Of a DNA stretch of 24,000 bases, positions 811 through 17,908 are shown piece by piece. The position numbers and the translations under genes were made by a program. The notes beneath the pieces were generated by a model that did no database searches, had not been told where the DNA came from, and worked only from the letters and a program-made list of their open reading frames with translations. The stretch comes from Tahibacter aquaticus (GTDB lineage Bacteria > Pseudomonadota > Gammaproteobacteria > Xanthomonadales > Rhodanobacteraceae). The stretch covers positions 1-24,000 of the forward strand of contig NZ_SNZH01000019.1 in NCBI RefSeq assembly GCF_004363655.1, written 5' to 3'. Numbering within the stretch: the stretch's first letter is position 1; every line of letters starts with the position of its first letter.

Positions 811-915
811 GGGACTGGCACGCTCTTTTATCCCGAGAAAGCAGCGCGTGGCATAGCCGCGCGCTGGCCGTCACTGTCAGCTTGCGCCGCCAGTGACGGC
901 CTCCAAGACAATCGG

Positions 916-2397: not shown

Positions 2398-2643
2398 ATG
2401 CCTTTCTCATTCGTCGGATGAGGGACAGCCGCCCGGTGACGCACCCGCGCCGGCGGTCTGTGGCGGCAGACGGAGCGGGGCGCGGCCAGGTTCGCCCTCC
2501 CGCTCCATTGGACAGGCCGTCCGGTTCGGCCTTTCCGCCCTGGCCAAGTCTTGCTATGCCATACCCAAGTGTCAAGCTGTGCCGTACGACAGTAGTGTGG
2601 AACTTCCATACCTTGCGGACAGGTACGTCGCGCAAGGTGCGGT

Positions 2644-2943
2644 ATGAAACGGTTTGGGGATCGGCTGAGGGAGGCGCGCATCGCAGCCGGCATGACGCAG
2701 GAGCAGCTCGGCTTCGAACTCGGCGTCACAAAATCATCGGTATCGGCCTGGGAGAACGGGCGCGAGACGCCCGGCTTCAGGCTGCTCGATACCCTGCGCC
2801 AAGCAGTCGGCCGATCACTCGATGAACTGATATGCGGCGCACCAGCCATCGCGAACATGGACGGGTCGAAAGACGCCCCTGGCGTTGACCCTGCGGCTAT
2901 TGTCACCGACCGCCCCCATGGAGCCATTCCAGGATCGCCGTAA
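2644..2943 (+). CDS. XRE-family helix-turn-helix regulator, disrupted: native sequence to 2900, then reads into the IS21-family element
   Basis: HTH_3-type N-terminus: MKRFGDRLREARIAAGMTQEQLGFELGVTKSSVSAWENG. From 2901 the ORF tail (..VTDRPHGAIPGSP*) is encoded by the IS inverted repeat. Confidence 0.85.
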   Translation: MKRFGDRLREARIAAGMTQEQLGFELGVTKSSVSAWENGRETPGFRLLDTLRQAVGRSLDELICGAPAIANMDGSKDAPGVDPAAIVTDRPHGAIPGSP

Positions 2944-3051
2944 TGGAGCCAGGTGCTGACCGGGGTAATGGAGCCAGCGAATGATCGGGCTATTGGAGCC
3001 AGCCGATGATCGCCGCAATGGAGCCAGCCGAGGATCGGGCTAAAGGCGCCA
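2918..3051 (+). repeat. Six subterminal direct repeats (~25-bp period, core AATGGAGCCA) in the IS21 left end; likely transposase-binding sites
   Basis: Core copies start at 2918, 2942, 2967, 2992, 3017 and 3042, the last being degenerate (AAAGGCGCCA). Only two inverted copies (TGGCTCCATT at 5557-5566 and 5581-5590) occur at the right end. Confidence 0.8.
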
Positions 3052-3122
3052 GCTGATGCCCTGAACGGGCTCTCGAACTCCCATTCACCGCTACCCTCCG
3101 GGCCTTTTGCCTGGGGGGAGCG

Positions 3123-4664
3123 ATGAGCAACCGGAGATTCGAGATGTATGAGTACCGACAGGTCCTGGTGCGATTGCGCCAGGGCGACTCCGATCGCGAT
3201 GTCGCGCGATCCCGTCTGATGGGGCGACGCAAGGTCGCCGAGGTTCGGCAGCAGGCTACCTCGCAGGGGTGGCTGGATGCCCAGCAGCCTCTGCCCGATG
3301 ATGCGGCCCTGGCTGCTGTGTTCAGCGACGCGCCGCGCACGCCGACCGCCGTATCAACGCTGGAACCCTGGCGAGAGCAGATCGTCACGTGGGTCGACGC
3401 GGGCGTGCAGGGCACGACGATCCACGCCACGCTCAGGCGCAACCACGGCTACACCGGCAGCTATTCCGCGGTCCGCCGTTTTGTTCAGCACATGGCCGCG
3501 CAGCGACCGCTGGTGACGACGATGCGGTTGACGTTCTTGCCGGCGGAGGCGGCACAGGTGGACTTCGGCGCTGGGCCGACGATCGTGGACGTGCACACCG
3601 GTGAGGTGATGAAGACGTGGATCTTCGTCATGACATTGGCGTTCTCGCGCCACCAGTACGCCGAGGTGGTGCGCGACCAGACGGTGGCCACATGGCTGGC
3701 CTGCCACCGCCGCGCCTTCGAGCACTTCGGCGGCGTGCCCGAGCGCATCATCATCGACAATCCCAAGTGCGCCATCACGCGGGCATCGGTCACCGATCCG
3801 GTCGTGCAGCGTGCGTATGCCCAGTGTGCGGAAGGCTATGGTTTTCGCATCAGTGCGTGCCCACCGGCAGACCCGCAGAAGAAGGGCATTGTCGAGTCCG
3901 GCGTCAAGTACATAAAACGTTCATTTGTTCCATTACGTACATTCCGCGACGTGCCCGATGCCAATCGCCAGCTGCTGGAATGGGTGTTCTCCGATGCTGG
4001 CACACGCTGCCACGGTACGACACGGGAGCAGCCACTGCGCGTCTTTGCGCAGACCGAACAGGCGCTGCTCAAACCGTTGCCCGACGTACCGCCGGAGCTG
4101 GCGGTATGGGCTCAGGTCAGTGTCCATCGTGACGCGCATGTGCAGTTCGAGAAGGTGCTGTACTCGGTGCCGTTCCGGCTCATGGGGCAGCGCCTGTGGC
4201 TCAAGGCCACGGCGAGCTTGGTCACCTGCTACCGCGAGCACGAGCTTGTCGCCACGCACCCGCGCCACTCGCGCCCCGGCGCGCGCAGCACGGTCCGCGA
4301 TCATCTGCCGCCCGAGGCGTTGGCGTGGTCGCTCGCCGATCCGCAGTACTGCCTGCAGGAAGCCCAACGGATCGGACCGTCGTGTTTGAAGCTCATCACG
4401 CGCCTGTTCGCTGATCGGGTCATGGACAACCTGCGAGCGGCGCAAGGCGTGATCCGTCTGGCCAAAGCCCACGGCCCGGCACGTCTGGAAGTGGCTTGTC
4501 AGCGCGCCATGAGCTTCGACTCGCCACGCTATCGCACCGTCAAGACCATCCTTGCCAATGGACTCGATCAGGCGGCGCAAGCCGACGCCTTCGACGCCAT
4601 GGCAGAGACCTATGTTCACGGCGGCCGGTTCTGCCGCCAGAACGATACCGGTCGGCGGCACTGA
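3123..4664 (+). CDS. istA: IS21-family transposase IstA
   Basis: The 513-aa product has an N-terminal HTH region and DDE-type motifs in IS21 order: QVDFG, IIIDNPKCAI, PQKKGIVESGVKYIK. It sits inside the inverted repeats, upstream of istB. Confidence 0.95.
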   Translation: MSNRRFEMYEYRQVLVRLRQGDSDRDVARSRLMGRRKVAEVRQQATSQGWLDAQQPLPDDAALAAVFSDAPRTPTAVSTLEPWREQIVTWVDAGVQGTTIHATLRRNHGYTGSYSAVRRFVQHMAAQRPLVTTMRLTFLPAEAAQVDFGAGPTIVDVHTGEVMKTWIFVMTLAFSRHQYAEVVRDQTVATWLACHRRAFEHFGGVPERIIIDNPKCAITRASVTDPVVQRAYAQCAEGYGFRISACPPADPQKKGIVESGVKYIKRSFVPLRTFRDVPDANRQLLEWVFSDAGTRCHGTTREQPLRVFAQTEQALLKPLPDVPPELAVWAQVSVHRDAHVQFEKVLYSVPFRLMGQRLWLKATASLVTCYREHELVATHPRHSRPGARSTVRDHLPPEALAWSLADPQYCLQEAQRIGPSCLKLITRLFADRVMDNLRAAQGVIRLAKAHGPARLEVACQRAMSFDSPRYRTVKTILANGLDQAAQADAFDAMAETYVHGGRFCRQNDTGRRH

Positions 4665-4733
4665 CAATAACCAACAAAGATTTATTGCAATCTGTTCACC
4701 TATATACACAAACTTATTGAAGGAATTGACACC

Positions 4734-5522
4734 ATGAACCCGATCCCACAGCTCAACCCCGCTCTCAAGCAACTGCGCCTGTCCGGCATCCTCGACTCCC
4801 TCGAAGCCCGTAACCGCCAGGCCGTCAGCGAACACCTCGCCTATACCGACTTCCTTGCCTTGCTCATCCACGACGAGATCGCACGGCGTGACCAGAAGAA
4901 ACTCGCCTTGCGTCTACGCCGCGCAAGCTTCCGCGCCGAGAAAACCCTCGATGGCTTCGACTTCGACCGAATCCCCTCGCTCAATCGCGCTCAGATCCAC
5001 GACCTGGCCACCGGTCGCTATCTCACCGAACGAGCGCCGGTTCTCATCGTCGGCCCCTGCGGCACCGGCAAAAGTCATCTCGCCCAGGCACTCGGCCACG
5101 CCGCCGCTCGCCACGGCCACGATGTGCTCTTCACCACACAGACCCAGCTCACCGGCACCCTGCACAAGGCGCGCGCCATCGGAACCTACGAACGGCGATT
5201 GCAGCAGCTGGCCAAGCTCGACCTCCTCATCATTGATGATTTTGGTCTCAAACCCCTGCGCACACCCCACGACGAAGATCTCCACGAACTCATCGCCGAA
5301 CGCTACGAGCGCAACTCCACCATCGTCACCAGCAACCTCGACTTCGACGAATGGCACGACGCCTTTCCCGCCAACCGCATCCTCGCCGAGGCCACCATCG
5401 ACCGCCTACGTCACGGCGCCTACCGCATCGTGCTCGACGGCGATTCCTACCGGGCTCCGCGTGATGCCAAATCCGCCCCGAAACCCCCTCTTGCCAAAGC
5501 CCCGAAATCCCCCGCATCCTGA
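4734..5522 (+). CDS. istB: IS21-family ATP-binding helper protein IstB
   Basis: The 262-aa product carries Walker A GPCGTGKSHLAQALG and Walker B DLLIIDDFG. SD GAAGGA lies 8 nt upstream of the ATG. Confidence 0.95.
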   Translation: MNPIPQLNPALKQLRLSGILDSLEARNRQAVSEHLAYTDFLALLIHDEIARRDQKKLALRLRRASFRAEKTLDGFDFDRIPSLNRAQIHDLATGRYLTERAPVLIVGPCGTGKSHLAQALGHAAARHGHDVLFTTQTQLTGTLHKARAIGTYERRLQQLAKLDLLIIDDFGLKPLRTPHDEDLHELIAERYERNSTIVTSNLDFDEWHDAFPANRILAEATIDRLRHGAYRIVLDGDSYRAPRDAKSAPKPPLAKAPKSPAS

Positions 5523-5606
5523 CCCTGTTCGAGAGCCCTTTTTAGGGCACTTCTACTGGCTCCATTAGCCCGATCTTGGGTGGCTCCATTAGGGCGGTCG
5601 GTGACA

Positions 5607-5708
5607 GCTATTGCGCGCAACCCCGACGAGCGCGCGCTGCTCGTGCACTACCGCCGTCTTCCGGCCAGCAAGCGTGGCGCGTGGCTGGAGCTGATCCGGC
5701 GCGAATAG
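5607..5708 (+). pseudogene. 3' fragment of the IS-split XRE regulator gene
   Basis: Reading GCT ATT GCG CGC.. from the duplicated GCTAT gives AIARNPDERALLVHYRRLPASKRGAWLELIRRE* (stop 5706-5708). This is in frame with 2644..2900 once the IS and one target duplication are removed. Confidence 0.8.
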
Positions 5709-5789
5709 CCTCGAAACACGCGAGACGCCTCCGCAGCAAAACTCGTCAACTCTGCTCGCCTAACGTGGAGTGAGAGGTTCGGCGCGCTC

Positions 5790-6794
5790 GTGACACCTGC
5801 CTTCCCAATGCTCGGGTACTACACCGGCGAGCTTCGGGGAATGGCAATGTGGAAACGCTGGAGAACCTGGGTAATGCTTGCCCTGTTGGTCTTGCTGAAC
5901 ATTGCGGCCTGGGACATACGGACTGCACCTCAGCAGCATGCAGGAGTGATCCCGCTGTATCAGCACCAGCAGGATGGTGTCACTCAGTACACCGACCTAA
6001 AGCCCGATAGCTTCTATTATCGAAGCATCTGGTACTCCTGGGCTGTTGCCCTGTTCACCGGTTTCGTATTGCCCTTCATTGTGGCTTACCTTCTGCCGTG
6101 GCTGTGGCACCGAAGGAAGCACCTCATGCGAGGTATTTGGCGCGCTTTGGACAGCAGGAAAAAAAGGGCCCTTGCCACCTGCGTTGTTCTGTTTGTTGTA
6201 CTCAACATTCTTGCTTGGGACATAAAAACTTCGCCCTTTGAAGTTGCCGGGCCCATCACGCTCTACCAACACAAGATGGAGGCAGACGGCACGGCACCGT
6301 ACACGCAGCTATGGCCAAGTAAAATAGTTTACCAAAATCCTTGGCTTACTTATGGTTGGGCGATCTTCGTTGGCTTTGTCTTGCCGTTCGCACCCGTCGT
6401 CTTGCCTTGGCTATGGCGACGGTTCCGGCATGGCCCCGGTCGATCAACCTCAAGCTCTCTACAGGGAAGCAAAGTGGGGGCCGCCCTGGGCACCTTGACC
6501 CTGCTCATAGCCTTCAATGTCCTAGCTTGGAACTGGGCCGAATCCAGCGAGAAGGGCAAGTTGCTCATCGTGCTGGAAGAGCGGGTAGCTCGTGAAAATG
6601 TAGGGTTTCAGAGGTACGACGCTACGTACTACTCTGGCATCGCCCCAGGAATCCGCTTTCCCGACGTGGGCACCTCTGTGCTCGCCTCGTTCTTCGTCGG
6701 CGAAATCCTGCCTTTCCTGCTTGCCATCGCGCTGTTTCGACGCCGACAGCCGCCGGCCCTTCCGCTGCCCCCTGTCGCGGGAGCACCGCGATGA
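5790..6794 (+). CDS. Integral membrane protein, three tandem two-TM modules (6 TM); family not recognised
   Basis: 334-aa ORF with a GTG start at 5790 (GAGAGG ~12 nt upstream); alternative ATG starts at 5808 or 5841 are possible. Six hydrophobic helices carry the repeated motifs LNIAAWD/LNILAWD/FNVLAWN and GFVLPF/GFVLPF/GEILPF. The stop overlaps the next gene's start (ATGA at 6791-6794). Confidence 0.8.
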   Translation: MTPAFPMLGYYTGELRGMAMWKRWRTWVMLALLVLLNIAAWDIRTAPQQHAGVIPLYQHQQDGVTQYTDLKPDSFYYRSIWYSWAVALFTGFVLPFIVAYLLPWLWHRRKHLMRGIWRALDSRKKRALATCVVLFVVLNILAWDIKTSPFEVAGPITLYQHKMEADGTAPYTQLWPSKIVYQNPWLTYGWAIFVGFVLPFAPVVLPWLWRRFRHGPGRSTSSSLQGSKVGAALGTLTLLIAFNVLAWNWAESSEKGKLLIVLEERVARENVGFQRYDATYYSGIAPGIRFPDVGTSVLASFFVGEILPFLLAIALFRRRQPPALPLPPVAGAPR

Positions 6795-8746
6795 ACTTAG
6801 ATACCCTTTGGATGACGCTTCAAGTCGTCATCATTATTGTTCTCGCCATCTTCGTCGCGTATGCCGTGTCAGTTTGGCGTGATCGACGTGCCATTCAGGC
6901 CCTGCTAGACGCGGTAGATTTTTACTCTACGGTCGCCCATGGAACTGCCGACTGGAATCGCAATGCCTTCCCCGGCATCAAGCCTGGTCCGCTCTTCTTA
7001 GGCGCAGCCAATGGCAGCGCGATGTACTACGACGGTGACCAGCACCTGATAACCATTGCCCCGACTAGAACGGGCAAGGGAACCTGCCACATCATTCCCA
7101 ACCTGCTGACCTACCCGGGCAGCATGGTCGTAAACGACATCAAGGGAGAGAACTACAAGCTGTCCGGAGAGAGACGCGGCCACTTCGGTAAGGTCTTCCG
7201 ATTCGCGCCCTTCGAGAACGACACCAGTGGCTTCAACCCGCTGGACTTCGTACGACGAGGCACGCCCGCCGCATTCGATGACGCCATGCTCATCGCCGAC
7301 ATGCTCATCGTGCCAGGGAAAGATGAAGAAGAGGGCAATCACTGGAAGGAAGCCGCCAAGAACCTATTGGCAGGCCTCATCGGCTACGTCAGCGAAACTG
7401 AGGAAGGCGAGCGGAACATGCAGCGCGTCCGCCAGTTGCTGACGCTCAATCAGAAAGCATTTCTTGAATTCGTCCGAGACAAGATGACGGCTTCGAAATC
7501 CGCCTTCGTCGTGCGCGCGGCCAACATACTGCTACAGAAGGCTGACCGCGAGCGTAGCGGCGTTGTCTCGACGGCACAGGCGCAGACCACTATATGGGAT
7601 AGCGAACATCTGTCGACAGCAACAAAAGTTAGTAGTTTTGGCCTTGAAGAGCTGCGTGACCAGGTGGCGACCCTCTACATCATTATTCCCCCGGAACATC
7701 TGAGCACCTACAAGGGGGTGCTGCGCGTCGTACTCGGACTAGCCCTATCGACGATGACCAGGCAGTTGCCAACACGGAACGACCGACCACCGCTGACCTT
7801 CCTGTTCGATGAGTTCCCGAGCCTGGGCTATATGCAGCCCATCGTAGACGGCATGGCCTACCTCGCTGGCTACGGCTGTCGGCTTTGGCTCTTCGCGCAA
7901 GACCTCGGCCAAATCCGTGAGACTTACGGCGACAAGGCCACCTCGCTACTGGCCAACTGCGGAGCGCGCTCCTTCTTCGGCGTTGCCGACTACGAAACTG
8001 CCGAATATGTCTCGAAGATGGTCGGTCAGAAAACCATTCGAACTTCATCCAGAACCTTCAAGACCAGCAAAATTTTGTTCTGGGCTGACGTTTGGGGCGT
8101 TGAAACCCAGAGTCTGCAATATGTCGGCGTGCCGCTTATCACGCCCGACGAAGTCATGCGAATACCGACTTGGGGCGATCAGCAGCGGCAAATCGTATTC
8201 CTACAAGGACAACGCCCGGTCTTGGCGTACAAAATCCCTTACCAGGATGTAGCAGTCTGGGCTGCTGCTGCGGTGCGTGCGCCGGTGTCGGTGCAGCTCA
8301 ACCAGTCGCCTATGCCGCCAAGCGATGTGCCAGAGGCTTCACAACAACCGGAGGTTGTAGCTGCAACTGGCACGGCTAACAGGGGGGTGAAAATACCCCT
8401 TGCAACCAAGCCGGGGTCTGCTTACATAAAAGGAGGCAACAAGCGAAAGGGTCAGGGGATGACCGCGACTTACGAACTCATTGAAGAATCCGAGGCCAAC
8501 TCGGAGAAAATGCACGAAAGCATGGTTCAATCAGCACAGCGTGCCCGCGAGGCAGAGCAAAAAGCAAAAGTACTGCAAAATGAACTTGCGACGTTGCCGT
8601 CTCAAGACCCAAGACGAGAAGGCTTGCTAAAACATATCGAGCTTTTGCAACTCATCGTCCAAACCGCTCGCGAAAACGTGTCGGATGGCCGCCTGGTATT
8701 GGATGCCGAGAGTGCTTTTGCAAAACGCCTCAAGGATGGATCATGA
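6791..8746 (+). CDS. traG: Type IV secretion coupling protein (VirD4/TraG family ATPase) with single N-terminal TM helix and long charged C-terminal tail
   Basis: The 651-aa product shows these motifs: HGTADW, Walker A ITIAPTRTGKGTCHIIPNLL, VVNDIKGENYKL, NPLDF, Walker B-like PLTFLFDEFPSLG, and RLWLFAQDLGQIRETYG. One hydrophobic segment spans residues ~8-28. The C-terminal ~150 aa are rich in E/K/Q/A heptad-like sequence. Confidence 0.92.
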   Translation: MNLDTLWMTLQVVIIIVLAIFVAYAVSVWRDRRAIQALLDAVDFYSTVAHGTADWNRNAFPGIKPGPLFLGAANGSAMYYDGDQHLITIAPTRTGKGTCHIIPNLLTYPGSMVVNDIKGENYKLSGERRGHFGKVFRFAPFENDTSGFNPLDFVRRGTPAAFDDAMLIADMLIVPGKDEEEGNHWKEAAKNLLAGLIGYVSETEEGERNMQRVRQLLTLNQKAFLEFVRDKMTASKSAFVVRAANILLQKADRERSGVVSTAQAQTTIWDSEHLSTATKVSSFGLEELRDQVATLYIIIPPEHLSTYKGVLRVVLGLALSTMTRQLPTRNDRPPLTFLFDEFPSLGYMQPIVDGMAYLAGYGCRLWLFAQDLGQIRETYGDKATSLLANCGARSFFGVADYETAEYVSKMVGQKTIRTSSRTFKTSKILFWADVWGVETQSLQYVGVPLITPDEVMRIPTWGDQQRQIVFLQGQRPVLAYKIPYQDVAVWAAAAVRAPVSVQLNQSPMPPSDVPEASQQPEVVAATGTANRGVKIPLATKPGSAYIKGGNKRKGQGMTATYELIEESEANSEKMHESMVQSAQRAREAEQKAKVLQNELATLPSQDPRREGLLKHIELLQLIVQTARENVSDGRLVLDAESAFAKRLKDGS

Positions 8747-9081
8747 CCACGCTGCAAGAAGAAGAGGTCCGCTGTAAGCGACGCTTACTAGATGCCGTGG
8801 AGCAGAAGAAGAGCGTGGAAGACCAGCTCGTAGCGAAAGAAGACGAGCTAGAAAAAAAGGGCTTCACGCCTGAGCTTTGGGCGAAAGTCGATAAGCTACA
8901 AAAGCAACGCGCCGAACTCATTTCTTTAGTGAGTGCCCGAGGAGCCGAATGGCGAGAGGCAAAAGCAAACCTAGACGCTGAGCATCAGCTTGAAGAACGG
9001 CGCGCCCGTGAAGCCGAAAGCCAGAAGGCGCGTGAGCAAGAACGCGCTAAGGGAAAGGAAATAGACGACCTGGAACTTTAG
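8743..9081 (+). CDS. Small highly charged coiled-coil protein, translationally coupled to the T4CP gene
   Basis: 112-aa ORF. Its ATG overlaps the T4CP stop (ATGA at 8743-8746), with AAGGATGGA upstream. The sequence is dominated by E/K/R/Q/A/L (EDELEKKG.., LEERRAREAESQKAREQERAKGKE). Confidence 0.7.
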   Translation: MTTLQEEEVRCKRRLLDAVEQKKSVEDQLVAKEDELEKKGFTPELWAKVDKLQKQRAELISLVSARGAEWREAKANLDAEHQLEERRAREAESQKAREQERAKGKEIDDLEL

Positions 9082-9117
9082 CGGCGTAGATACACCGCCG
9101 TAATCTGCTCGCGCTCG
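9078..9117 (-). pseudogene. 40-bp relic of the 3' end of a tyrosine-recombinase gene
   Basis: The minus strand reads EREQITAVYLRR*. Positions 9088-9117 are 30/30 identical to 10073-10102 and 27/30 identical to the 3' end of the intact integrase (10621-10650). Confidence 0.65.
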
Positions 9118-9269
9118 GTTTCGGGAAGGCATAGATTGGGCAGCATATAGCTGCCGCCAGCGCGACAACGGCCCGCGCGGCACACTTATGTGGGAAGATT
9201 ACTCTTGCAATTAGGCTCAAGGAAAAGCGCAGCAGTAAGGAGCGAGAGATGATGGATTCGAAGTGGTTT

Positions 9270-9932
9270 TCATGCACCGCGGTCGGCGACCTCGCGGGCA
9301 CGATGCGCAACTAGGGTGATTTTTGCCCACAACTCTTCTGCACTTTTTGCCAATTCTTGTATCTTCTCATCGTCGGTATCTGACCATATGTCAAGGACGA
9401 GCAATGCCTTCTTCCCCAGGAGCAAGGTGTCGCGATCAAAGTCTCGGCCTAATTCGATTGCTTCGGCAAACGTCGCCTCTGATCCTCCTAGCAAGTGCGC
9501 CCGCTCTAAAAACGTCACCAGCTCCTGCTGCGCAGAAAATTCAATACGCGCATCGCCGCTCAAGTATTTGCCCGCGATCTCCCGACTGTTTCCGTAGGCT
9601 AGAAAACGTCCGCCGATCCCGACCCGCGCGCCCCATTCTTCGAGGGGTGGGAGTATTCGCCTCGCGAATGCCCGAGCGGCTGTGACCTCCACTCTGCGTA
9701 GGTCAGCTAGTGCGTGCCCTCGCTGTATGGCGAGTACTAAAAACACTGCCACCAACGTGCCTGCGGACAGCAAGGCTTGCGCCCAGGCCGCGCAGGCACT
9801 TAACCAGCTTGGGTCTTTCATGCATAGCGGCTTGGCGATTCCCCAGAGCTCTAGGCAAAAGATGCCGAGACCAACGACCAGCCCGCCCCAACCAAGTCCC
9901 GCGCTCGCAATCTTCAATGCCCTGCGAATCAC
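9270..9932 (-). CDS. Hypothetical protein with two N-terminal TM helices and a soluble C-terminal domain
   Basis: 220-aa ORF with a GTG start preceded by a strong SD (GGAGGAG, 6-nt spacer). Hydrophobic segments: GLGWGGLVVGLGIFCLELWGI and ALLSAGTLVAVFLVLAI. No family was recognised. Confidence 0.7.
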   Translation of the reverse strand: MIRRALKIASAGLGWGGLVVGLGIFCLELWGIAKPLCMKDPSWLSACAAWAQALLSAGTLVAVFLVLAIQRGHALADLRRVEVTAARAFARRILPPLEEWGARVGIGGRFLAYGNSREIAGKYLSGDARIEFSAQQELVTFLERAHLLGGSEATFAEAIELGRDFDRDTLLLGKKALLVLDIWSDTDDEKIQELAKSAEELWAKITLVAHRAREVADRGA

Positions 9933-10062
9933 AATTCACTCCTCCAGACCGGTCGGGCTGATATGCATTCCGCGATTTACGTTGGGCTTTGGCGGAACAA
10001 ACTTTTGCATTCTACGCCTCACAGAAGGCGCGCAGAGCTAGCGGTGTACTCTCTCATGACCA

Positions 10063-10195
10063 CTATCGCCCAAGATACACCGCCGTAATCTGCTCGCGCT
10101 CGTGGCCGAGCTAGCAGAAAATCCGCAACCTGGCCTCGCGTTCACGAGCCTCGCCGTCGCTCTCGCCACCAAGAAGCGGCTTGAAGTAGGTCCAA
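10063..10195 (-). pseudogene. ~130-bp relic of the 3' end of a related tyrosine-recombinase gene, with an internal stop
   Basis: The minus strand reads ..LGGESDGEAREREARLRIFC*LGHEREQITAVYLGR*. The intact gene reads ..QLGIDDKARDRDARLKISRELGHEREQITAVYLGR*. Nucleotide similarity is clear over the first ~90 bp and then fades. Confidence 0.75.
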
Positions 10196-10332
10196 AATTA
10201 GAAGCTCAACAAGAACAAAGGTGCAGAGATACACTTCGGATGCTAGCGGTTCGAGACAGGTTGACGTAGTCTACTAGCAGACGCACCGCTGCTGAATGAG
10301 TACTTCCAACCGCAAGCCTGGAGGATGCAACA

Positions 10333-10590
10333 ATGGCCAAAGGTTTTCGTTGCCCTGCATGTGGCAAATCTACTGCCACACAGGATAAGGGGGCATATCA
10401 CTGCGGCAACAATGCGTGTGGCACTGTCTGGTGGACTGCGTTCGATAGACCGTCCGCCGGAGCAAAGAAAAAGGGGTTCGAATGCACGTCTTGTGGAAAG
10501 CAAACAGTGCATTCAATCGCCACGGTTGCTGCCGCTGAAATATGGCGTTGCAGTACATGTGCATGGACCCGGATTAGCCCGGTTCAGTAG
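10333..10590 (+). CDS. Small double zinc-ribbon protein (internal duplication)
   Basis: 85-aa ORF with SD GGAGGA 7 nt upstream. It has two CxxC..CxxxC/CxxC units: FRCPACGK..YHCGNNACG and FECTSCGK..WRCSTCAW. Confidence 0.7.
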   Translation: MAKGFRCPACGKSTATQDKGAYHCGNNACGTVWWTAFDRPSAGAKKKGFECTSCGKQTVHSIATVAAAEIWRCSTCAWTRISPVQ

Positions 10591-10610
10591 ACGAGAGCTT
10601 CAATACCAGC

Positions 10611-11492
10611 CTATCGACCGAGATAGACCGCCGTTATCTGCTCTCGCTCGTGGCCCAGCTCGCGAGAAATCTTCAACCTGGCATCGCGGTCGCGGGCCTT
10701 GTCGTCAATACCGAGCTGACGTGAGGTCGGGCCGCCGGCAGCAGGGCAAGGAAAGCCCGTTTCCTCCAGGTAGCGACGCTGCGCATACTGATGCCGTAGG
10801 CCGTGGGTTTTCGAGAGGCCAGCCTTCGCCGTCTGGTGCTTGAAGGTGTTGAGCTGTTCAACATAGAGCTTGTTGGACGGAATCAGCGAGCCGCCTTTGG
10901 CGAAGCCAGCGACCTCCTGGAGCAAGGCCACCTGTTCCGCCGTGCGTATCGGAACCTCGCGCGGCCTTCCGCCCTTGCACCAGGACGCCTTGAGCTGTAC
11001 GACCTGGCCGACTTCAATGGCGACCAACGCGACCTTGGGGCGAAACTTCAGGGCTTCTTCGCGGCGCAGGCCAAAGGCGGCCTGCAAGCGCAGGGCATAC
11101 CGCGTCCAGGGATCAGTGACCCGCTCCAGGCCATCGCCGCCCAACTCAACAGCCTTGGTCTTGTTGGTGACGTACTTGCGGTCAGCAATGCCGTAAAAGG
11201 CGTTGTCGCTGGCAATGATGCCCGGCTTGCCGACCTTTTCGGCCCACCACCGAAGGGCCGCCATGCGGTTCTTCACCGTGCCGACTGACAGGTCTTGTCC
11301 ACGCCAGGACTTCACCAACGCCTCGACGTGCTTCGGCTTGAGGCTGTCGGCAGTCATATTCTGATAGCCCAACCCCTTCAGGTCGTCGGCCATCTTGGTC
11401 AGAGTCTTTAATCTCTCTGCCTGGGTGCCAAAGCTCCCGTCTTTGTTGCGGTAGGCCAGGTGTCGCAGGTCGTATTTCAAGCTCACACGCAT
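10611..11492 (-). CDS. Tyrosine recombinase / phage-type integrase
   Basis: The 293-aa product has an N-terminal SAM-like region (KPKHVEALVKSW..TVKNRMAALRWW). The catalytic signature reads AFGLRREEAL (Arg), KGGRPREVPI, THGLRHQYAQ (His-x-x-Arg), and LGHEREQITAVYLGR* (His..Tyr), with the Tyr four residues from the C-terminus. Confidence 0.9.
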   Translation of the reverse strand: MRVSLKYDLRHLAYRNKDGSFGTQAERLKTLTKMADDLKGLGYQNMTADSLKPKHVEALVKSWRGQDLSVGTVKNRMAALRWWAEKVGKPGIIASDNAFYGIADRKYVTNKTKAVELGGDGLERVTDPWTRYALRLQAAFGLRREEALKFRPKVALVAIEVGQVVQLKASWCKGGRPREVPIRTAEQVALLQEVAGFAKGGSLIPSNKLYVEQLNTFKHQTAKAGLSKTHGLRHQYAQRRYLEETGFPCPAAGGPTSRQLGIDDKARDRDARLKISRELGHEREQITAVYLGR

Positions 11493-11684
11493 TGCCGGAG
11501 TTCCGGTAAGTGTTCACGCCGTCACTGGTGGCTCCGGGAGCCAGCCAGCAACCCCACCTCGATCAGATCGAGGCAGGCAGGGGCTATTGAGCTTGGGCGC
11601 ATCGACCGATGCACCCGCGTTTGTGCCTGTTGGCACCTCCTTTCTACGCAGGTTGTTGACCTGATTGGTTTTCATACGACGGTG

Positions 11685-11960
11685 CTAGCTCCCCTCCTGG
11701 CCGGAAGGGGAAAGCACCCGATGCAGGTTTTTCGCGTGGGCCTGTCCACGTTGAGGGTTTCCCCTCGAACCGTCCTGAAACGCCTGTAGGTTTCGTTTCA
11801 AGCGTTCCGCCTTGCCCCGGCTCATATCGCGTTCGTGGCGCGCCTGGGCTGTCTCCTGATGCGCTTCCATGAGCGCGACCAGCAGACGCGCGTTCTCGCG
11901 GCGGAGGGTTCCGACTTCCGCACGGAGGGCCGCGAGCTGTTCCGCGACGCTGGTCGTCAT
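11685..11960 (-). CDS. Hypothetical small coiled-coil protein upstream of the integrase (start uncertain: ATG 11960 or TTG 11987)
   Basis: Track ORF 11685..11987. The N-terminal half is heptad-like (AEQLAALRAEVGTLRRENARLLVALMEAHQETAQARHE). The C-terminal third is low complexity. No convincing SD was found. Confidence 0.4.
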   Translation of the reverse strand: MTTSVAEQLAALRAEVGTLRRENARLLVALMEAHQETAQARHERDMSRGKAERLKRNLQAFQDGSRGNPQRGQAHAKNLHRVLSPSGQEGS

Positions 11961-12015
11961 GCCTCCATCATTCCGAAATCGTGCCAAAAAATCAATGTAT
12001 ACCGAGGTGTTTCAT

Positions 12016-12052
12016 GCGTCGTCATTGTCAGCTTGGCAGCCAATGACGACGC
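12016..12052. repeat. Perfect 12-bp inverted repeat with 13-nt spacer in ORF-free DNA
   Basis: GCGTCGTCATTG (12016-12027), then tcagcttggcagc, then CAATGACGACGC (12041-12052). Confidence 0.85.
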
Positions 12053-12891
12053 TGCGTGTTGCTACGCCCCCCCGAAAACGCCACGCCGGTTTTGGACAGG
12101 CACGCCGGTTCTTCAGTTTTGTGAAGACTGTTCACGGGCGTCAGGCGGCCAGTACGCCTTCAGACAACAGAGGAGATGAACGCTTTCGTCTAGCGGCAGG
12201 GGGGGGCTCACCCTTCCCCCTTTGTCGTATCCGACAACAGCCGTCTGAGTTCTGTCGGCTACAACCATCCCGAAGCGGTCGGCATCTTGCGGTTCACGCT
12301 ACGCGGCTCGCAGCCGCCTCCGCAGGTGCGTTTCGCAGACCATATAGCTGAGAGGATCGGCGCCTTCACCGCAGCGAGGCATACCGGAGCGTGGTCGAGC
12401 AATCCTCTCACCGCTGTCTGGCCAGCTATTGCCGTAGTAACCGTTGCGTGCTTCTGCGTCCAGCGCACATCGCCTTCTTCTGCCTGGGGTCGTCGTGTTC
12501 TAGGGCTAGCCACCAAATTCTTCCTGACCTAGGCCCTTACCCCCCCCGTGCCGTGTGGCCAAGAAATGGACTCGTTGCCCAACCCGAATCACGCAGATCA
12601 ATCGCGACTACGGCGGAATGCAAAGGAATCACGAAAACTTGTGCTGTCGACGGACGTGTCGGATAGTCGCCCTACTAGCGAACCGCGCTCTCACGCTACG
12701 CTTCAACTGCTGGAGCGATTAGTTCGCAGAGCCTAACGGATGGCGGCAATTTTTGGTGCACGCTCACATTCAAGTTCGCCAGTGTTCGAAAAGCGACTGT
12801 TCAGTTTGGCTCTATCTGCGATTCAAGAATCTGCATAGGAAACCACCAAGCCGGTTGCGTTTTATGATTATCCTTTTAAAAGGACATTCTT

Positions 12892-13530
12892 GTGACTCGC
12901 TCTTACTATCGTATTTATCAGTACCGTCCAGATAGTCAACCACGCGACTTTGATACTTTTTTGGCGAGCCGCGTATGGTCAGCATCTATTGAAAGTCTGA
13001 ATGATCCATTTGAGTTCCATGCCTTTAGTACCCTCGCGTCAAGACCAGAAATGCATGCACAGTTCGCAAGTGCTGGCGTGACATGCTTCTGTCGTGCGCT
13101 TACAAATCCGCTGCTCTGGTCACACTACGCCAACGGCCATACCGGATTTTCTGTTGGATATGATCCTGCACATCCATTCTTCGGTGGCGATAAGGAAATG
13201 CGTATGCGAATTCTGCACGACGTTCGCTACGAAGACATTCCTCCAAACGCCGATTTTCTGGAGGGTGATGACCTGGCTATGGCGGCAGTTCTTACAAAGC
13301 CAACTTGCTGGGCGTATGAGCAGGAGGTGCGACTCATTACGCGAGAATCTAAACGACTTGTCGATATCCCGACGGATGCGATTAAAGAGTTGATATTAGG
13401 TGCTCGAATGTCGTCTGATCGGGTCACTGAGATTGTCAATAAGATCCAATCGATCAACATGAATGTGAAGATTGCCAAGATGCAGTTCTCCAGAGAGAGC
13501 TATGGCGTTAGACCGCAGTGGATCGCATAG
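12892..13530 (+). CDS. DUF2971-family protein
   Basis: 212-aa ORF with a GTG start and AAGGA 8 nt upstream. Motifs YRIYQYR, SLNDPFEF, LWSHYA and CWAYEQEVRL match my recollection of PF11185. It lies in a more A/T-rich segment. Confidence 0.8.
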   Translation: MTRSYYRIYQYRPDSQPRDFDTFLASRVWSASIESLNDPFEFHAFSTLASRPEMHAQFASAGVTCFCRALTNPLLWSHYANGHTGFSVGYDPAHPFFGGDKEMRMRILHDVRYEDIPPNADFLEGDDLAMAAVLTKPTCWAYEQEVRLITRESKRLVDIPTDAIKELILGARMSSDRVTEIVNKIQSINMNVKIAKMQFSRESYGVRPQWIA

Positions 13531-13599
13531 CTTTGGTATGCGCGCAGGTAAGCATTGGCCTACTGGAGGCTGAACCTAAGCCCTAAAAGGACTACGGAT

Positions 13600-14304
13600 A
13601 TGTCGTCGCGCACAAAGGTTCCAGGCTCGACTCAGGCCGAGGTGCTTGTCCAATCTCGTCGCCGATGCTGCATTTGCTACGGACTATCCAAAGACTCCTC
13701 CGTCAAAAAGGGGCAAATTGCCCACCTCGACGGTGATCGGAACAACAACGCATCAAAAAATCTAGCCTTTCTGTGCTTCGACCATCACGACGAATTCGAC
13801 TCACGGACAAGTCAGAGCAAAGGACTTCAGACGACGGAAATAGAGATCTACCGAGAGGAGCTCTACTACACTTTTGGAAGTTGGAGTGCTCAGCTTCATC
13901 GAGACGAGCTACTTAACTTTCTAGCATTCTACGCTGCGGACTACGATGCTATGGCGAAAGCTGCGATCAAGGCCGGACATTCTGTCGTCTTCTATGGAGA
14001 AGAGCTTGCATTTGATGTACTTGTAACTGACCAAGTCGACTACTGTGACGGAGATCTATATCTTCCGCATATTGCTGTACTCGAACTCTTTGCCGCTTGG
14101 GGTTGGCTAACGTTCTCATACGAAGAGCAAAAGGATGAGAATGACATTACGTCAAGGGTTTTAATAAGAGCTGATCGGAAGCCTATTTGCGACGAGGTTG
14201 CGAAACGCCTTCTGACTGCACTTGAGTCCAAGCAAGACGTTTACCAAAGCCTTGCTGCCAAAGCCAAGCATCGAGGGTGGTCGCGTGATGAAGGTAGCCC
14301 CTAA
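13600..14304 (+). CDS. HNH-type nuclease domain protein with unassigned C-terminal domain
   Basis: The ATG at 13600, with AAAGGA 8 nt upstream, is preferred over the TTG at 13555. The N-terminal signature is RRRCCICYG..GQIAHLDGDRNNNASKNLAFLCFDHHDEFD (CxxC, His, Asn-rich, CxxHH). The remaining ~150 aa are unassigned. Confidence 0.75.
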   Translation: MSSRTKVPGSTQAEVLVQSRRRCCICYGLSKDSSVKKGQIAHLDGDRNNNASKNLAFLCFDHHDEFDSRTSQSKGLQTTEIEIYREELYYTFGSWSAQLHRDELLNFLAFYAADYDAMAKAAIKAGHSVVFYGEELAFDVLVTDQVDYCDGDLYLPHIAVLELFAAWGWLTFSYEEQKDENDITSRVLIRADRKPICDEVAKRLLTALESKQDVYQSLAAKAKHRGWSRDEGSP

Positions 14305-14593
14305 CGGCAACTACCGCCACGTCACGAGTCACCGACTGGCTGAACGTCAACCGTCATTACCTCTAGTACGAACGCGATCAAGGCTGACCTCAGGCCACTG
14401 CCCCTTGAAACAGCCCCGATAGGGGCAAGTAACTGCCGTCCGCCTCTCTGCCTTCAATCTGTGGGCTGTGCGGTGAAAATGTTCTACACAATTCCTGCAC
14501 AGGCTTTTTTCTGTCAATTTAATCTTGTAAAAACAAATAGATGCGAATGCATCCTTCCACCGCTGGAAGGACCGACCTTCGCAAACCCAGGAA

Positions 14594-15382
14594 TTGGTCG
14601 CCCTTGATGTGGACTCGATCCACCGCATTGTGTATGACCCGGAGCGGTTTTCCGAAGTCTCCGTTCTCGTCGTCGACTACTTCATGCCGGAAATGGACGG
14701 CGTCACCTTCTGCAAGCGGCTCAACAATCCGCTGATCGGCAAGATCCTGCTCACCGGCCGCGCGGAAGACTCGGTCGCGATCGAAGCCTTCAATTCCGGC
14801 GTGATCGATCGCTTCATTCGCAAGAGCGATCCGCAGGCCATGGCCAAATTGCAAGTCGCCATCCGCGAATTGCAGCAGCGCTATTTCGAGCGCGCCGGCG
14901 CCTTCGTCGCCGAAGCGTTGGCGATGGGGCGATTCTCGTTCCTGCGCGATCCAGCCTTCCGTGCCGTATTCGATTCGGTCGTGGCTACCTTCCAGCCGAT
15001 CGAATCGTATGTGGTGTGCAATCCCACTGGCGTGCTCATGCTCGACGCCTGGGGAGTGGGCCGCTTCTTGCTTGTACAGACCGACGATGATCTGCGCGAG
15101 CAACACGATGTGGCCGAAGATCGCGGTGCCCCGGACAACCTGCTGCGTGCCTTGCGCTCCGGCAGTGCCTTGCCCTGGTTCTGGTCCAGCGGTGGCTTCT
15201 ACAGCCCGCAAATTGCCGACCCTGGCGCAAACCTGTTTCCGGCCACCGCGATACAAGGCGATAACTGCTACTACTTCAGCCTTATCGATCACCTTGAACC
15301 GCTGCAGCTGGCCCATGTGAAGTCGTACCGCAACTGGTTGCGCGAACAGGACAATATCGACATCCCGCCGCGCGCGGGATAG
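14594..15382 (+). CDS. Receiver-domain (LqsR-like) response-regulator protein, apparently 5'-truncated at the island junction
   Basis: The phospho-acceptor region VLVVDYFMPEMDGVTF, followed by GKILLTGRAE..AFNSGVIDRFIRK, lies only ~28 aa after the first possible start (TTG). The frame is closed by a TAA at 14528-14530. The N-terminal acidic-pocket part of a receiver domain is absent. Confidence 0.75.
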   Translation: MVALDVDSIHRIVYDPERFSEVSVLVVDYFMPEMDGVTFCKRLNNPLIGKILLTGRAEDSVAIEAFNSGVIDRFIRKSDPQAMAKLQVAIRELQQRYFERAGAFVAEALAMGRFSFLRDPAFRAVFDSVVATFQPIESYVVCNPTGVLMLDAWGVGRFLLVQTDDDLREQHDVAEDRGAPDNLLRALRSGSALPWFWSSGGFYSPQIADPGANLFPATAIQGDNCYYFSLIDHLEPLQLAHVKSYRNWLREQDNIDIPPRAG

Positions 15383-15511
15383 TCGCGCATCATCGCAAAC
15401 CCTCTCGATTCCGACCGGCCCAAGGCCGGACCGGTCGTCCCGCTGCGGCGCCGTAACCGCAGCCAGCCAGGGATGGCTTGGTCCATAAACTCCCGTGAGA
15501 GGTTTGCAGTC

Positions 15512-16798
15512 ATGTCTATTTCCTTCCCGTCTGTTGTCACCCCTTCCTTCCAGATGCTGCCGGTGCGTTCGCCGGAGCTGCCGGAGTTCGCCCGCCAGCG
15601 CGTGGAGCGATTCCATAACGAGCGCGTCGCCACGAGCTGGAACGGCCGCCATATCCTGCGCGGCGCCAAGCCCGGCGCCAATGCGCTGATGTTGCAGAGC
15701 AATGACTATCTGGCCATTACGCGGCATCCGGAAATTGTCGCCGCGCAGCGCGAGGCACTCGCCTGCGCCGGCAACGGCGCAATGATGTCCGGCCTGTTTC
15801 TGCAGCATGACGACGATCCGCTGCACGTGGTCGAACGCGAACTCGCCCTGGCCCTGGGCAGCGAAGAAACCATCCTCTGCCAGTCGGGCTATGTGGCGAA
15901 CATCGGCCTGGTGCAATGCCTGGCCGGAGAGCGCACGCCGGTCTATATCGACATGCTGGCGCATGCATCGCTGTGGGAAGGCATCAAGGCTGCCGGCGCG
16001 CAGTCGGTGCCGGTTTTCCACAACGATCCGGAGTATCTGGAGCGGCAGATCCTGCGCCACGGCCCCGGCCTGATACTGGTCGACTCTATCTACAGCACAA
16101 ACGGCAGCATCTGCCCGCTGGCGGAATTCGCCACTATCGCACAGCGCCACGGCTGCATCTTCATCGTCGACGAATCGCACTCGCTGGGCACACACGGCGT
16201 GCATGGCGAAGGGCTGGTCGCCAGCCTCGGCCTGAACGACCGCGTGCATTTCGTCACCGCCAGCCTGGCCAAGGCGTATTGCGCGCGGGCGGGCCTGATC
16301 AGCTGCAGCCGCCGCTTCAAGCCGTACTTCGCCTTCGAGTCGATGCCAGCGATCTTCTCCTCCACCCTGCTGCCGCCGGAGCTGGCTGGCATCGACGCTT
16401 CGCATCGCGTGATCCAGCGCGAAGGCTGGCGCCGTGCACGCCTGCAGCACGTCACCCGGCGCGTGCGCGAAGCGCTGCTGGAACTGGGCTATCCGGTACG
16501 CGAAGGCACCGAGCAGATCATCGCGCTGGAAGTCGGCACAGAAGCTGCCGTGATGAAGGTGCGCGATGCGTTCGAGGCGGAAAACATCTTCGGCGCGATC
16601 TTCTGCGCACCGGCCACGGCGAAGAACCGCGCGCTGCTGCGCCTGACCCTGCACGCCGGCCTCGACGACGATGCGGTCAATCGCCTGATCGGCGCCTGCA
16701 CGCGGCTGCGCGACAAGATCGACCTGGCCGACTGGAGCGCATCGCGACGCGAACGGCGTACGGTGAACAAGCCGCAGGCGGCTCTGGAGGTGGCCTGA
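15512..16798 (+). CDS. cqsA: CqsA/LqsA-family alpha-hydroxyketone autoinducer synthase (PLP-dependent, class II aminotransferase fold)
   Basis: Motifs shared with Vibrio CqsA: LQSNDYLA, CQSGYVANIGL, VYIDMLAHASLWEG, HGPGLILVDSIYSTNGSICPL, IVDESHSLGTHG, HFVTASLAKA, PAIFSSTLLP. The ATG at 15512 has GAGAGG 9 nt upstream; the track start at 15473 is possible but has a weaker SD. Confidence 0.9.
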   Translation: MSISFPSVVTPSFQMLPVRSPELPEFARQRVERFHNERVATSWNGRHILRGAKPGANALMLQSNDYLAITRHPEIVAAQREALACAGNGAMMSGLFLQHDDDPLHVVERELALALGSEETILCQSGYVANIGLVQCLAGERTPVYIDMLAHASLWEGIKAAGAQSVPVFHNDPEYLERQILRHGPGLILVDSIYSTNGSICPLAEFATIAQRHGCIFIVDESHSLGTHGVHGEGLVASLGLNDRVHFVTASLAKAYCARAGLISCSRRFKPYFAFESMPAIFSSTLLPPELAGIDASHRVIQREGWRRARLQHVTRRVREALLELGYPVREGTEQIIALEVGTEAAVMKVRDAFEAENIFGAIFCAPATAKNRALLRLTLHAGLDDDAVNRLIGACTRLRDKIDLADWSASRRERRTVNKPQAALEVA

Positions 16799-16847
16799 GG
16801 CCCGAGCCCCATCGCGCTGTTGCACTGGTTGAATGAGTGAAAACCGG

Positions 16848-16872
16848 GCGGCCCGAACAGGGCCGCTTTTTT
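16848..16872 (+). terminator. Rho-independent terminator after the autoinducer synthase gene
   Basis: GCGGCCC (16848-16854), loop gaaca, GGGCCGC (16860-16866), followed by TTTTTT (16867-16872). Confidence 0.75.
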
Positions 16873-16885
16873 CGTGCCTGTCGTG

Positions 16886-17041: not shown

Positions 17042-17908
17042 TCAGTGCTCGGGCAGCGGAATGAATTCTGTCTCATCCGGTACAGATGGAAAACGCTGCG
17101 CGGCCCAATCCTGCTTGGCCTGCTCGATGCGCTCGCGGCTGCTGGCCACGAAGTTCCACCACAGGTGACGCGGACCATCCAGCGCATCGCCGCCGAGCAG
17201 CACGACACGGCTGTCGACAACCGCAGTGAAGCTGTCGGCTTGCGCCGCCAGTACCGCCAGTTCGTTCGCCGGCACGGCCTGGCCATCCACCTCGATGCCG
17301 CCGCTGACGACATACAGTGCGCGCTCGGCGTAGTCGGCCTGCAGCGACACGCGGCTGCCGGCGCTGACGTCCATCCACACGTACAAGGTCGGCGACGGCG
17401 CCTGCACCGGCGACTCCACGCCGAAGGCGCGCCCCATCAATACGTGCAGGCTGGCGCCGTCATGCTGCACCCGCGGCAGGCTGCTGCCGGGGTAATGGCG
17501 GAACCAGGGTGCGGACTCGGCCTGGTCCTGCGGCAAGGCCAGCCAGGTCTGCAGGCCGTGCAGGTACTGGCCCTCGGCCTTGGCCTGCGCACTGCCGCGC
17601 TCGGAATGGACAATGCCGCGTCCCGCACTCATGAGATTGATGTCGCCGGGACGGATCGCCTGCACCGTGCCAAGGCTGTCGCGATGCACCATCTCGCCGG
17701 CCATCAGATAGGTGACAGTGGCCAGGCCGATATGCGGATGCGGCCGTACATCGGTGCCGCCGCCCGGCGCCACGTCCAGCGGGCCGAACTCGTCGAGAAA
17801 GACGAACGGACCCACCGCGCGGGCACGCAGATGCGGCAAGGCGCGGCGTACGATCAGGCCACCGCCGATATCGTGGATGCGCGGCTCGATCAGGATGGTC
17901 TGGCTCAT
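17042..17908 (-). CDS. Pirin family protein (bicupin)
   Basis: 288-aa product. The signature GPFVFLDEFGP..RPHPHIGLATVTYLMAGEMVHRDSLG..NLMSAGRGIVHSE is the typical pirin N-terminal cupin metal site. Confidence 0.92.
   Translation of the reverse strand: MSQTILIEPRIHDIGGGLIVRRALPHLRARAVGPFVFLDEFGPLDVAPGGGTDVRPHPHIGLATVTYLMAGEMVHRDSLGTVQAIRPGDINLMSAGRGIVHSERGSAQAKAEGQYLHGLQTWLALPQDQAESAPWFRHYPGSSLPRVQHDGASLHVLMGRAFGVESPVQAPSPTLYVWMDVSAGSRVSLQADYAERALYVVSGGIEVDGQAVPANELAVLAAQADSFTAVVDSRVVLLGGDALDGPRHLWWNFVASSRERIEQAKQDWAAQRFPSVPDETEFIPLPEH

Follow-up and report, generated by a model that had tools for sequence, protein, structure and literature searches.

Probable clean insertion of a ~24-kb mobile element into the LqsR-family regulator gene of a Tahibacter aquaticus quorum-sensing locus

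Genes and features at the locus

The sequence of interest, hereafter the window, is a 24,000-nucleotide stretch of the genome of Tahibacter aquaticus, family Rhodanobacteraceae (assembly GCF_004363655.1, contig NZ_SNZH01000019.1, here C19; positions 1 to 24,000 of the forward strand). It contains part of a predicted alpha-hydroxyketone quorum-sensing locus: the 3' fragment of an LqsR-family regulator gene, followed by an intact autoinducer synthase gene. The rest of the locus—the 5' part of the regulator gene and a sensor kinase gene—is found on a second contig of the same draft assembly (C25), at the far end of an island of ~24 kb. We consider it very likely that the island is an element that inserted cleanly into the regulator gene, which was split with nothing deleted, and that the outcome is an ordinary insertional knockout. 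The features at the centre of this reading are as follows (coordinates are those of the window unless prefixed with C25).

96..14558, + strand: right-hand 14.46 kb of the island, recognised by lack of homology to the relatives' synteny, Pfam content and G+C content
14559..14566, + strand: attR copy of the 8-bp direct repeat ACCGCTGG (putative crossover core), covering regulator codons 68-70
14561..15382, + strand: 3' fragment of the LqsR-family regulator gene, codons 69-341 plus stop
14675..14677, + strand: codon of the phospho-acceptor Asp, residue 28 of a 262-amino acid (aa) open reading frame (ORF) and D107 of the intact protein
15512..16798, + strand: intact CqsA/LqsA/JqsA-type, pyridoxal phosphate (PLP)-dependent autoinducer synthase, 428 aa
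C25:9921..8554, - strand: intact CqsS/LqsS-type sensor kinase, 456 aa, found using a relative's kinase as query
C25:8551..8342, - strand: regulator codons 1-70, immediately 3' of the kinase
C25:8349..8342, reverse complement: attL copy of ACCGCTGG, adjoining island DNA

On the + strand of the window, the regulator frame is open from a TAA at 14528-14530 to a TAG at 15380-15382. The longest startable ORF within it (14594..15382, TTG start, 262 aa) is without the first ~79 regulator codons, the acidic pocket among them. The earliest usable starts are codon 80 (the TTG at 14594) and codon 85 (an in-frame GTG at 14609); the gene caller's product of 257 aa fits the latter. Direct reading of the sequence found no well-spaced or convincing Shine-Dalgarno (SD) sequence before either start.

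An earlier note, made from the letters of the window alone, had described an LqsR-like regulator whose N-terminus was lost through the island, and in this it is borne out. The Pfam Response_reg match to the 262-aa ORF covers only profile positions 41-106 of 111 (29.5 bits); since it begins at position 41, the part with beta1 and the acidic pocket is absent. The window copy thus has no complete receiver: beta1, the Asp-Asp acidic pocket, alpha1, beta2 and alpha2 are missing, and the acidic pair itself (D21 and D22 of the intact regulator) is encoded on C25, 24 kb from the fragment. What does remain is the phospho-acceptor motif VLVVDYFMPEMDG, with its Asp at residue 28 and 234 residues downstream, just as the note had counted, and an intact LqsR-specific C-terminal output domain.

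The full-length, 341-aa allele described below was compared with PDB 6SY9, a structure deposited under the name 'Response regulator', which we take to be L. pneumophila LqsR. The two align over residues 7-332 (E=1.9e-52), that is, to residue 332 of 341 at the C-terminal end. In 6SY9, the acidic pair is aligned with D21 and D22, and the phospho-acceptor Asp of the VVDYAMPGMDG motif with D107, the residue encoded at 14675..14677. Judged from this alignment, the regulator gene is a member of the LqsR family, homologous to LqsR over its whole length.

After a gap of 129 bp between the regulator stop and the synthase start, the synthase gene is complete. The earlier reading of an intact CqsA-like synthase, including the motif HFVTASLAK, is confirmed. 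Against NCBIfam NF005526 ('alpha-hydroxyketone-type quorum-sensing autoinducer synthase'), the cut-off of which is 428, the protein reaches 548.8 bits; it also matches the V. cholerae CqsA structures 3HQT/2WK8 (E=3.7e-103), in an alignment that spans residues 32-410 of the 441-aa query. The counterpart of HFVTASLAK in CqsA is HFMTASLAK, which makes residue 254 (codon at 16271) the PLP lysine; the protein has the characters of the class, being of the PLP-dependent acyl-CoA transferase type with the conserved PLP lysine. The start at 15512 is supported by relatives' synthases, which align over their full length from residue 1.

Regulator genes of relatives

Regulator homologues were sought in 15 same-genus genomes, all Tahibacter. 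A close homologue is present in 12 of them (76-96% identity). Similarity to the window sequence sets in at query residue 8, and from there on the fragment shares 93-96% identity with same-genus regulators. At every homologue locus with a readable 5' region, the frame reaches a conserved upstream start, ~69 residues further; the full 5' end in relatives reads MxPGAA..FPTTTVLVDDHEEY..GGGWLYRWKDR.

These homologues bear on a possibility that the earlier note had itself raised: that the 262-aa protein is a naturally short, receiver-less member of the LqsR-like family. The frame is indeed open, with possible TTG and GTG starts, but the lack of a convincing SD sequence before either start speaks against their use. 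Furthermore, same-genus homologues and conspecific alleles all encode regulators of ~341 aa with a full receiver, and identity between these and the window copy stops exactly at the att repeat, beside island DNA. By the refuting conditions that the note had laid down, a naturally short protein is refuted, and we attach next to no probability to it.

One relative stands apart. In a complete genome of another Tahibacter species (G011; L014:12326-13351), the regulator gene carries an in-frame TAA at ~codon 248, where its kin have CAA (Gln). Judged from its sequence, the gene was inactivated here in a separate event.

The 5' part of the regulator gene and the sensor kinase

In relatives, a 456-aa HisKA/HATPase kinase gene lies directly upstream of the regulator gene, with an ATGA overlap. 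In the T. aquaticus genome, the relative's kinase has a single strong, full-length match: the stop-free gene at C25:9921..8554, whose product is 82% identical to the query. Next to it, regulator residues 1-72 match C25:8551..8336 (- strand) at 96% identity. Neither a second LqsR-like gene nor a second CqsS-like kinase was found in the genome (a draft of 82 contigs).

The kinase carries HisKA and HATPase_c domains, with the H-box at H221, and no receiver domain; its hydrophobic segments fit ~six transmembrane helices in residues 45-200. JGI annotation gives the name CqsS to homologues in Luteibacter, Dyella and Frateuria, a label that carries no functional test. NCBIfam gave no CqsS-specific match for the kinase, the best being the LuxN kinase core, far below its cut-off. 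Its predicted membrane topology, and its position in the cluster in contigs with an empty site (see below), mark it as the cognate polytopic kinase of the locus. Together, the arrangements on C25, in the window and in relatives suggest an ancestral operon of (i) a 456-aa kinase, (ii) a 341-aa regulator whose start overlaps the kinase stop, (iii) a leader of ~115 nt, and (iv) the 428-aa synthase.

The above results change the picture given by the window. Neither the kinase nor the 5' fragment is visible within its 24 kb, and the earlier note, correctly reporting no adjacent kinase, proposed that insertion of the island, or an accompanying deletion, had cut the regulator gene and might have displaced the kinase; read as removal of the 5' end and the kinase, this would leave an orphan synthase. 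It also suggested searching the far end of the island for the missing pieces, and that is where both lie, intact. Since the two flanks also join to an empty-site contig with no base missing (see below), the orphan-synthase explanation is refuted. Hence 'no sensor kinase' does not stand, and the words 'truncated', 'decapitated' and 'associated deletion' give way to a clean insertion, in which 8 bp were duplicated and the host lost no DNA. Of the proposed signal producer without a local response arm, one half holds: the regulator is broken, while the sensor is intact.

Insertion junctions

In the window, the boundary between island and chromosome is 14558|14559. The earlier note had correctly identified the TAA at 14528-14530 as closing the regulator frame, but had also placed the island edge there; in fact, the last 28 bp before the junction are island DNA that supplies the in-frame codons KQIDANASFH. 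From codon 69 on, the window copy is identical to the intact 341-aa allele. The chromosome is syntenic with four relatives as far as C25:8342, and again from window position 14556, with no homology to the relatives' syntenic region in the window to the left of 14556. On the relatives' sequence, the two chromosomal sides overlap by ~10 bp, which indicates that no host base was deleted.

Both junctions carry the 8-bp repeat ACCGCTGG. In the direction of the gene, the left junction (C25) reads ...GGCTCT ACCGCTGG / GGAGACGAGG... and the right junction (window) reads ...CATCCTTCC ACCGCTGG / AAGGACCGACC..., while the intact site in relatives reads ...GGCTCT ACCGCTGG AAGGACCGG.... The repeat is single-copy in uninterrupted relatives and conspecific contigs. 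At attL, regulator residues 1-70 continue into ten island-encoded residues, GDEVLLNIRK, giving a 5' stub of 80 aa.

A gene for a tyrosine recombinase (PF00589; 429 aa), referred to here as the integrase gene or int, starts ~140 bp inside attL on the strand of the kinase and stub. Kinase, stub and integrase gene are therefore co-oriented, with ~105 bp between the stub stop and the int start (C25:8342-8203), and operon transcription may read into int. Short repeats of the form CTRCACAR accompany both ends of the island:

14484..14502, + strand: two CTRCACAR repeats, 11 bp apart, just inside attR (putative arm-type integrase sites)

Two further pairs, again spaced 11 bp apart, are found between attL and int (C25 8285/8274 and 8235/8224). 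The motif occurs genome-wide at 0.36 per kb and is conserved in 77 related elements (see below), so these repeats probably serve as arm-type integrase sites. Apart from the 8-bp core, attP and attB as reconstructed have little in common (15/30 positions). A search for a better attP-like site elsewhere in the genome, allowing up to 3 mismatches in 20 bases or 5 in 28, found none.

Empty sites in other public sequencing runs

Exact sequences of the kinase, regulator, synthase and integrase were looked up in Logan contigs of public runs. The exact intact regulator was retrieved from five runs (SRR845265, SRR13608731, SRR13608734, SRR25400228 and SRR27977634), and the locus is uninterrupted in all contigs from these runs that are long enough to show its neighbours. 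In these contigs, an identical 456-aa kinase and an identical 428-aa synthase bracket the intact 341-aa regulator. When the two T. aquaticus flanks are joined in silico with one copy of the repeat, the result matches contig SRR845265_128361 at 100.000% over 4193 bp (0 mismatches, 0 gaps) and the SRR13608731 contig with 1 mismatch (99.98%). Precise excision in silico thus restores the reading frame and the exact 341-aa wild-type protein, the same as that called on the SRR845265 and SRR13608731 contigs.

The exact island integrase was found in one run only, SRR7174585, and the Logan contigs of this run reproduce both junctions independently. This last result addresses the concern that the join between island and chromosome is a chimera of assembly. 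It is true that the assembly is a draft in 82 contigs and that a contig break falls within the island; however, the junctions are 8.3 and 14.5 kb inside their respective contigs, they carry a matching 8-bp repeat and matching arm repeats, and an independent assembly contains them both. The probability of an artefact is, in our estimation, close to nil. Taking together the match to the empty site, the occurrence of the integrase in one run and the independently reproduced junctions, we conclude from these sequences that the insertion is real, recent and strain-specific.

The island as an integrative mobilisable element

The island consists of 8246 bp on C25, an insertion sequence (IS), and 14463 bp in the window, for a total of ~24 kb. 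The G+C content of its window part is 0.49-0.61, compared with 0.62-0.70 in the flank. The contig break within it is caused by a multicopy element:

1..95, - strand: end of a multicopy IS3-family element

These first 95 bp of the window are 100% identical to several other contig ends; together with C25:1-95 (L026), they represent opposite ends of the IS3-family element. The element splits a radC gene, which ends as '...FDVRL*' on the minus strand of the window and continues as 'LLDHFVIGG...' at C25:97, with a 4-bp duplication (CAAC/GTTG) at the point of insertion. The split radC gene and the 4-bp duplication indicate that a single IS copy bridges C25 and C19, closing the island.

The part of the island in the window contains radC, a gene for an ankyrin protein, an XRE-type helix-turn-helix gene beside an IS21 copy, an operon encoding a TraG/VirD4 coupling protein (type IV coupling protein, T4CP), an Integrase_1-like gene, and genes for DUF2971 and HNH-like proteins. 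Over the whole island, the cargo also includes a ParD/ParE pair, a subtilase and two Phage_int_SAM_2/Integrase_1 proteins, the ankyrin protein being among this cargo. Pfam searches of the island ORFs gave no relaxase match, and no excisionase was recognised among the small ORFs.

Given its terminal recombinase gene, the short direct repeats that flank it and the empty site seen in kin, the island has the defining marks of an integrated element. It shares these marks with integrative mobilisable elements (IMEs) and integrative and conjugative elements (ICEs), as it does the presence of a T4CP and a toxin-antitoxin pair as cargo. No mating-pore genes of a type IV secretion system (T4SS) were found among the island ORFs, only the TraG/VirD4 coupling protein; for this reason we file the element as an IME rather than an ICE. 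It differs from well-known elements of these kinds in that it lacks a T4SS, occupies a coding sequence not used by its relatives, and has been hit by both IS3 and IS21.

The integrase family is widespread, with members of 57-80% identity in Lysobacteraceae, Tahibacter soli, Sphingomonadales and Caulobacterales. An alignment of the int-proximal ends of 77 family members (among L027-L106) shows sharp conservation up to the junction, ~140 bp upstream of each integrase start, and at least three junction classes: TGGAGCGGGTGAAGGGAT, which resembles the 3' end of a tRNA; CGCCGGGATGAG, which is often inside REP-like palindromes; and GGGGAGAC, which includes the present element and its closest relatives. 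No regulator sequence is found at the junction in any of the 77 (0/77), and no tRNA genes were found at the integrase-proximal junction of 12 related elements. The right arm of the island has only chance-level matches in the genomes of the two closest integrase relatives. Some family members seem to interrupt other coding genes; in one (L039), an open frame resembling a fragment of an RND-transporter gene runs into the junction. Because attP and attB are similar only at the core, and because no relative sits in an LqsR-type gene, we interpret the regulator gene as a fortuitous secondary insertion site and not a dedicated target.

These observations also bear on whether the insertion could be a programmed, reversible switch, in which excision of the island restores lqsR under defined conditions. 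In support of a switch, precise excision would regenerate the exact wild-type ORF, as it does for the comK, sigK and mutL regulatory-switch elements; moreover, the integrase is full-length and repeats are present in both att arms. The arrangement of kinase, stub and int on one strand, with ~105 bp between the last two, would even permit a more detailed version, in which the kinase-stub transcript enters int and the activity of the operon sets the excision rate. If true, excision would make populations heterogeneous for signal blindness. However, related elements of a regulatory switch use the same host gene, and here they do not: the closest integrase relatives (80% identity) adjoin unrelated DNA, and the family uses at least three junction types. 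In addition, the insertion was seen in one sample only, no excisionase was recognised, and the IS insertions in the element, such as that splitting radC, suggest decay. We therefore hold a programmed switch to be unlikely, and its more detailed version equally so.

Consequences for the strain

The work in the preceding sections is best accounted for by site-specific integration, in which a tyrosine recombinase would have inserted the IME inside regulator codons 68-70. The crossover would have taken place within the 8-bp ACCGCTGG common to attP and the chromosomal site, which now flanks the element as a direct repeat. At attL, this would leave the kinase and the 80-aa stub, reading into the integrase gene; at attR, it would leave codons 69-341 and the synthase, 24 kb away and separated from the operon promoter upstream of the kinase. 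With beta1 through alpha2 missing, any product of the 3' fragment should neither fold nor be phosphorylated. As the genome contains no regulator paralogue, the strain is most likely LqsR-null, with sensor and synthase retained.

Synthase transcripts would now have to come from island read-through or from some internal promoter yet to be mapped. The two island genes nearest the junction (DUF2971 and HNH-like) are co-oriented with the regulator fragment, and no + strand terminator lies between them and it (14304-14594), so that read-through transcription of the fragment is possible and read-through into the synthase plausible.

A contrasting outcome would be a gain or change of function, with translation of the 3' fragment yielding an output domain that no functional receiver restrains and that is constitutively active. 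The whole C-terminal LqsR-type domain is intact, and the potential for read-through described above would supply a transcript. Against this, the fragment keeps about half of the receiver (beta3 to alpha5) with its central strand, beta1, gone, and CheY-fold receiver fragments without beta1 usually misfold. The start codons are also weak and without well-spaced SD sequences. In the structural study of LqsR, dimerisation is reportedly linked to phosphorylation. We regard a constitutive fragment as improbable.

Several points do count against a simple knockout by clean insertion. Firstly, it is the split radC gene and the 4-bp duplication, rather than a spanning read, that link C25 to C19. Secondly, the DNA sequence is the ground for all that is said of lost function, polarity on the synthase and excision. 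Thirdly, some residual or deregulated activity is possible, given that the phospho-acceptor Asp and the complete output domain are still encoded by the fragment. Finally, a sigma-70 consensus scan of 14200-17100 found no promoter, a result that says little in an organism of 65% G+C. Even with these points in mind, an ordinary insertional knockout is, by a wide measure, the explanation in which we place our confidence.

What had looked like an orphan synthase with a decapitated regulator is, on this reading, a clean, recent and potentially reversible insertional knockout, and the case illustrates how a 24-kb window alone can mislead about what a genome has lost. With an intact locus in public runs and no mismatch over the 4.2 kb compared, nature has provided a near-isogenic pair, which could serve to study the role of an LqsR-type regulator in a soil bacterium of the Lysobacterales; as far as we found, no Lqs-type system has been characterised in this order. 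The independent nonsense mutation in G011 hints that loss of the response arm recurs, much as lasR is repeatedly lost elsewhere. In other respects the biology is ordinary: the inactivated gene belongs to a known quorum-sensing family, and an unannotated RNA leader (see below) has come to light as a by-product.

Comparison with known systems

The Lqs system of Legionella pneumophila is the nearest in its regulator, which is homologous throughout (the DD pocket, the VVDYxMPxMDG motif and the C-terminal domain), and its synthase is of the same PLP family. The organisation is different: lqsA-lqsR-hdeD-lqsS in Legionella, and here kinase-regulator-synthase on one strand with an ATGA overlap, without hdeD and without a second, LqsT-like kinase. 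The present strain differs further in that its regulator gene is split by a mobile element. The absence of a receiver domain from the kinase is a point of agreement, as Legionella LqsS is likewise not known to carry one.

In Vibrio cholerae, CqsS is a hybrid kinase that feeds LuxU/LuxO. The likeness to the CqsA/CqsS system lies in the synthase, which aligns with CqsA and conserves the PLP-lysine motif, and in the naming of the kinase homologues; the kinase described here differs from CqsS in having no receiver domain and a dedicated regulator. The V. cholerae Cqs cluster contains no LqsR-type regulator (PMC3566124).

The JQS system of Janthinobacterium/Duganella (jqsA-jqsS-jqsR) controls secondary metabolites and proteases (PMC3566124, PMC5080296). 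Like the Tahibacter locus, it belongs to environmental, non-pathogenic bacteria, and its single cluster encodes a synthase, a kinase and an LqsR-type regulator, one of each. The differences are (i) gene order, which is A-S-R there and S-R-A here, (ii) class, Tahibacter being a member of the Gammaproteobacteria (Lysobacterales), and (iii) the structured leader upstream of the synthase, none being described for JQS.

PhcX of Ralstonia solanacearum is an LqsR-family regulator uncoupled from lqsA/lqsS (PMC10653808). As at the present locus, it shows the LqsR arm to be evolutionarily labile—decoupled, relocated or lost. The two cases are mirror images: in Ralstonia the regulator was kept and rewired while synthase and kinase were lost, whereas the present strain retains both of these and has a broken regulator. 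LqsR-like regulators of 58-60% identity are also found in two further genera of the family (G016:C1:2923053-2923853 and G020:C8:570581-571381), and neither genus gave a synthase match at E<=1e-60; these may be orphan LqsR/PhcX-like regulators.

Downstream flank and synthase leader

Three further features complete the chromosomal side of the window.

15396-15511, + strand: structured, conserved leader of the synthase gene, ~115 nt, recognised by consensus fold, covariation and covariance model
16846..16868, + strand: terminator-like hairpin with a T run, between the synthase gene and the convergent pirin gene
17042..17908, - strand: pirin gene, convergent, in the chromosomal flank (Pfam Pirin and Pirin_C; syntenic in relatives)

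The terminator and convergent pirin gene after the synthase had both been pointed out in the earlier note. Two long ORFs in the vicinity were considered and set aside. A 768-aa minus-strand ORF (14519..16825) is a GC-rich shadow of the regulator and synthase genes, and a 480-aa frame that precedes the kinase gene (C25:9918-11360) is unlikely to be a real gene; in its place, the Logan gene calls have a 138-aa gene and a gap of ~245 bp.

In the consensus fold of the leader, a 5' anti-SD sequence (CCUCUC) is paired to the SD sequence (GAGAGG), with two internal hairpins between them. The sequence of one hairpin has turned over completely with its pairing kept. Across the alignment, 93% of cells are paired, compared with 34-46% when the partners are slid; double changes are seen at five pairs, and the observed covariation score was reached by none of 500 shuffles (0/500). 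The copy in the window folds at -51.3 kcal/mol (z = -3.3). An Rfam scan of 14300-17100 returned nothing relevant, and no Rfam match for the leader.

A covariance model detects one leader copy per genome in 6/6 Tahibacter and in 2/2 genomes of one sister genus, and no copy in 28 other genera of the family. The leader is always located between regulator and synthase, including in one match from outside the training set; it is also present in L124-L132. In one genome (G001; L010), ~140 bp of extra DNA separates the regulator stop from the leader, the start of which is still GAAACCTCTC. That this start is unchanged suggests that the leader is a discrete unit. Its A(N)GGA motifs invite the speculation that the leader is under RsmA/CsrA control.

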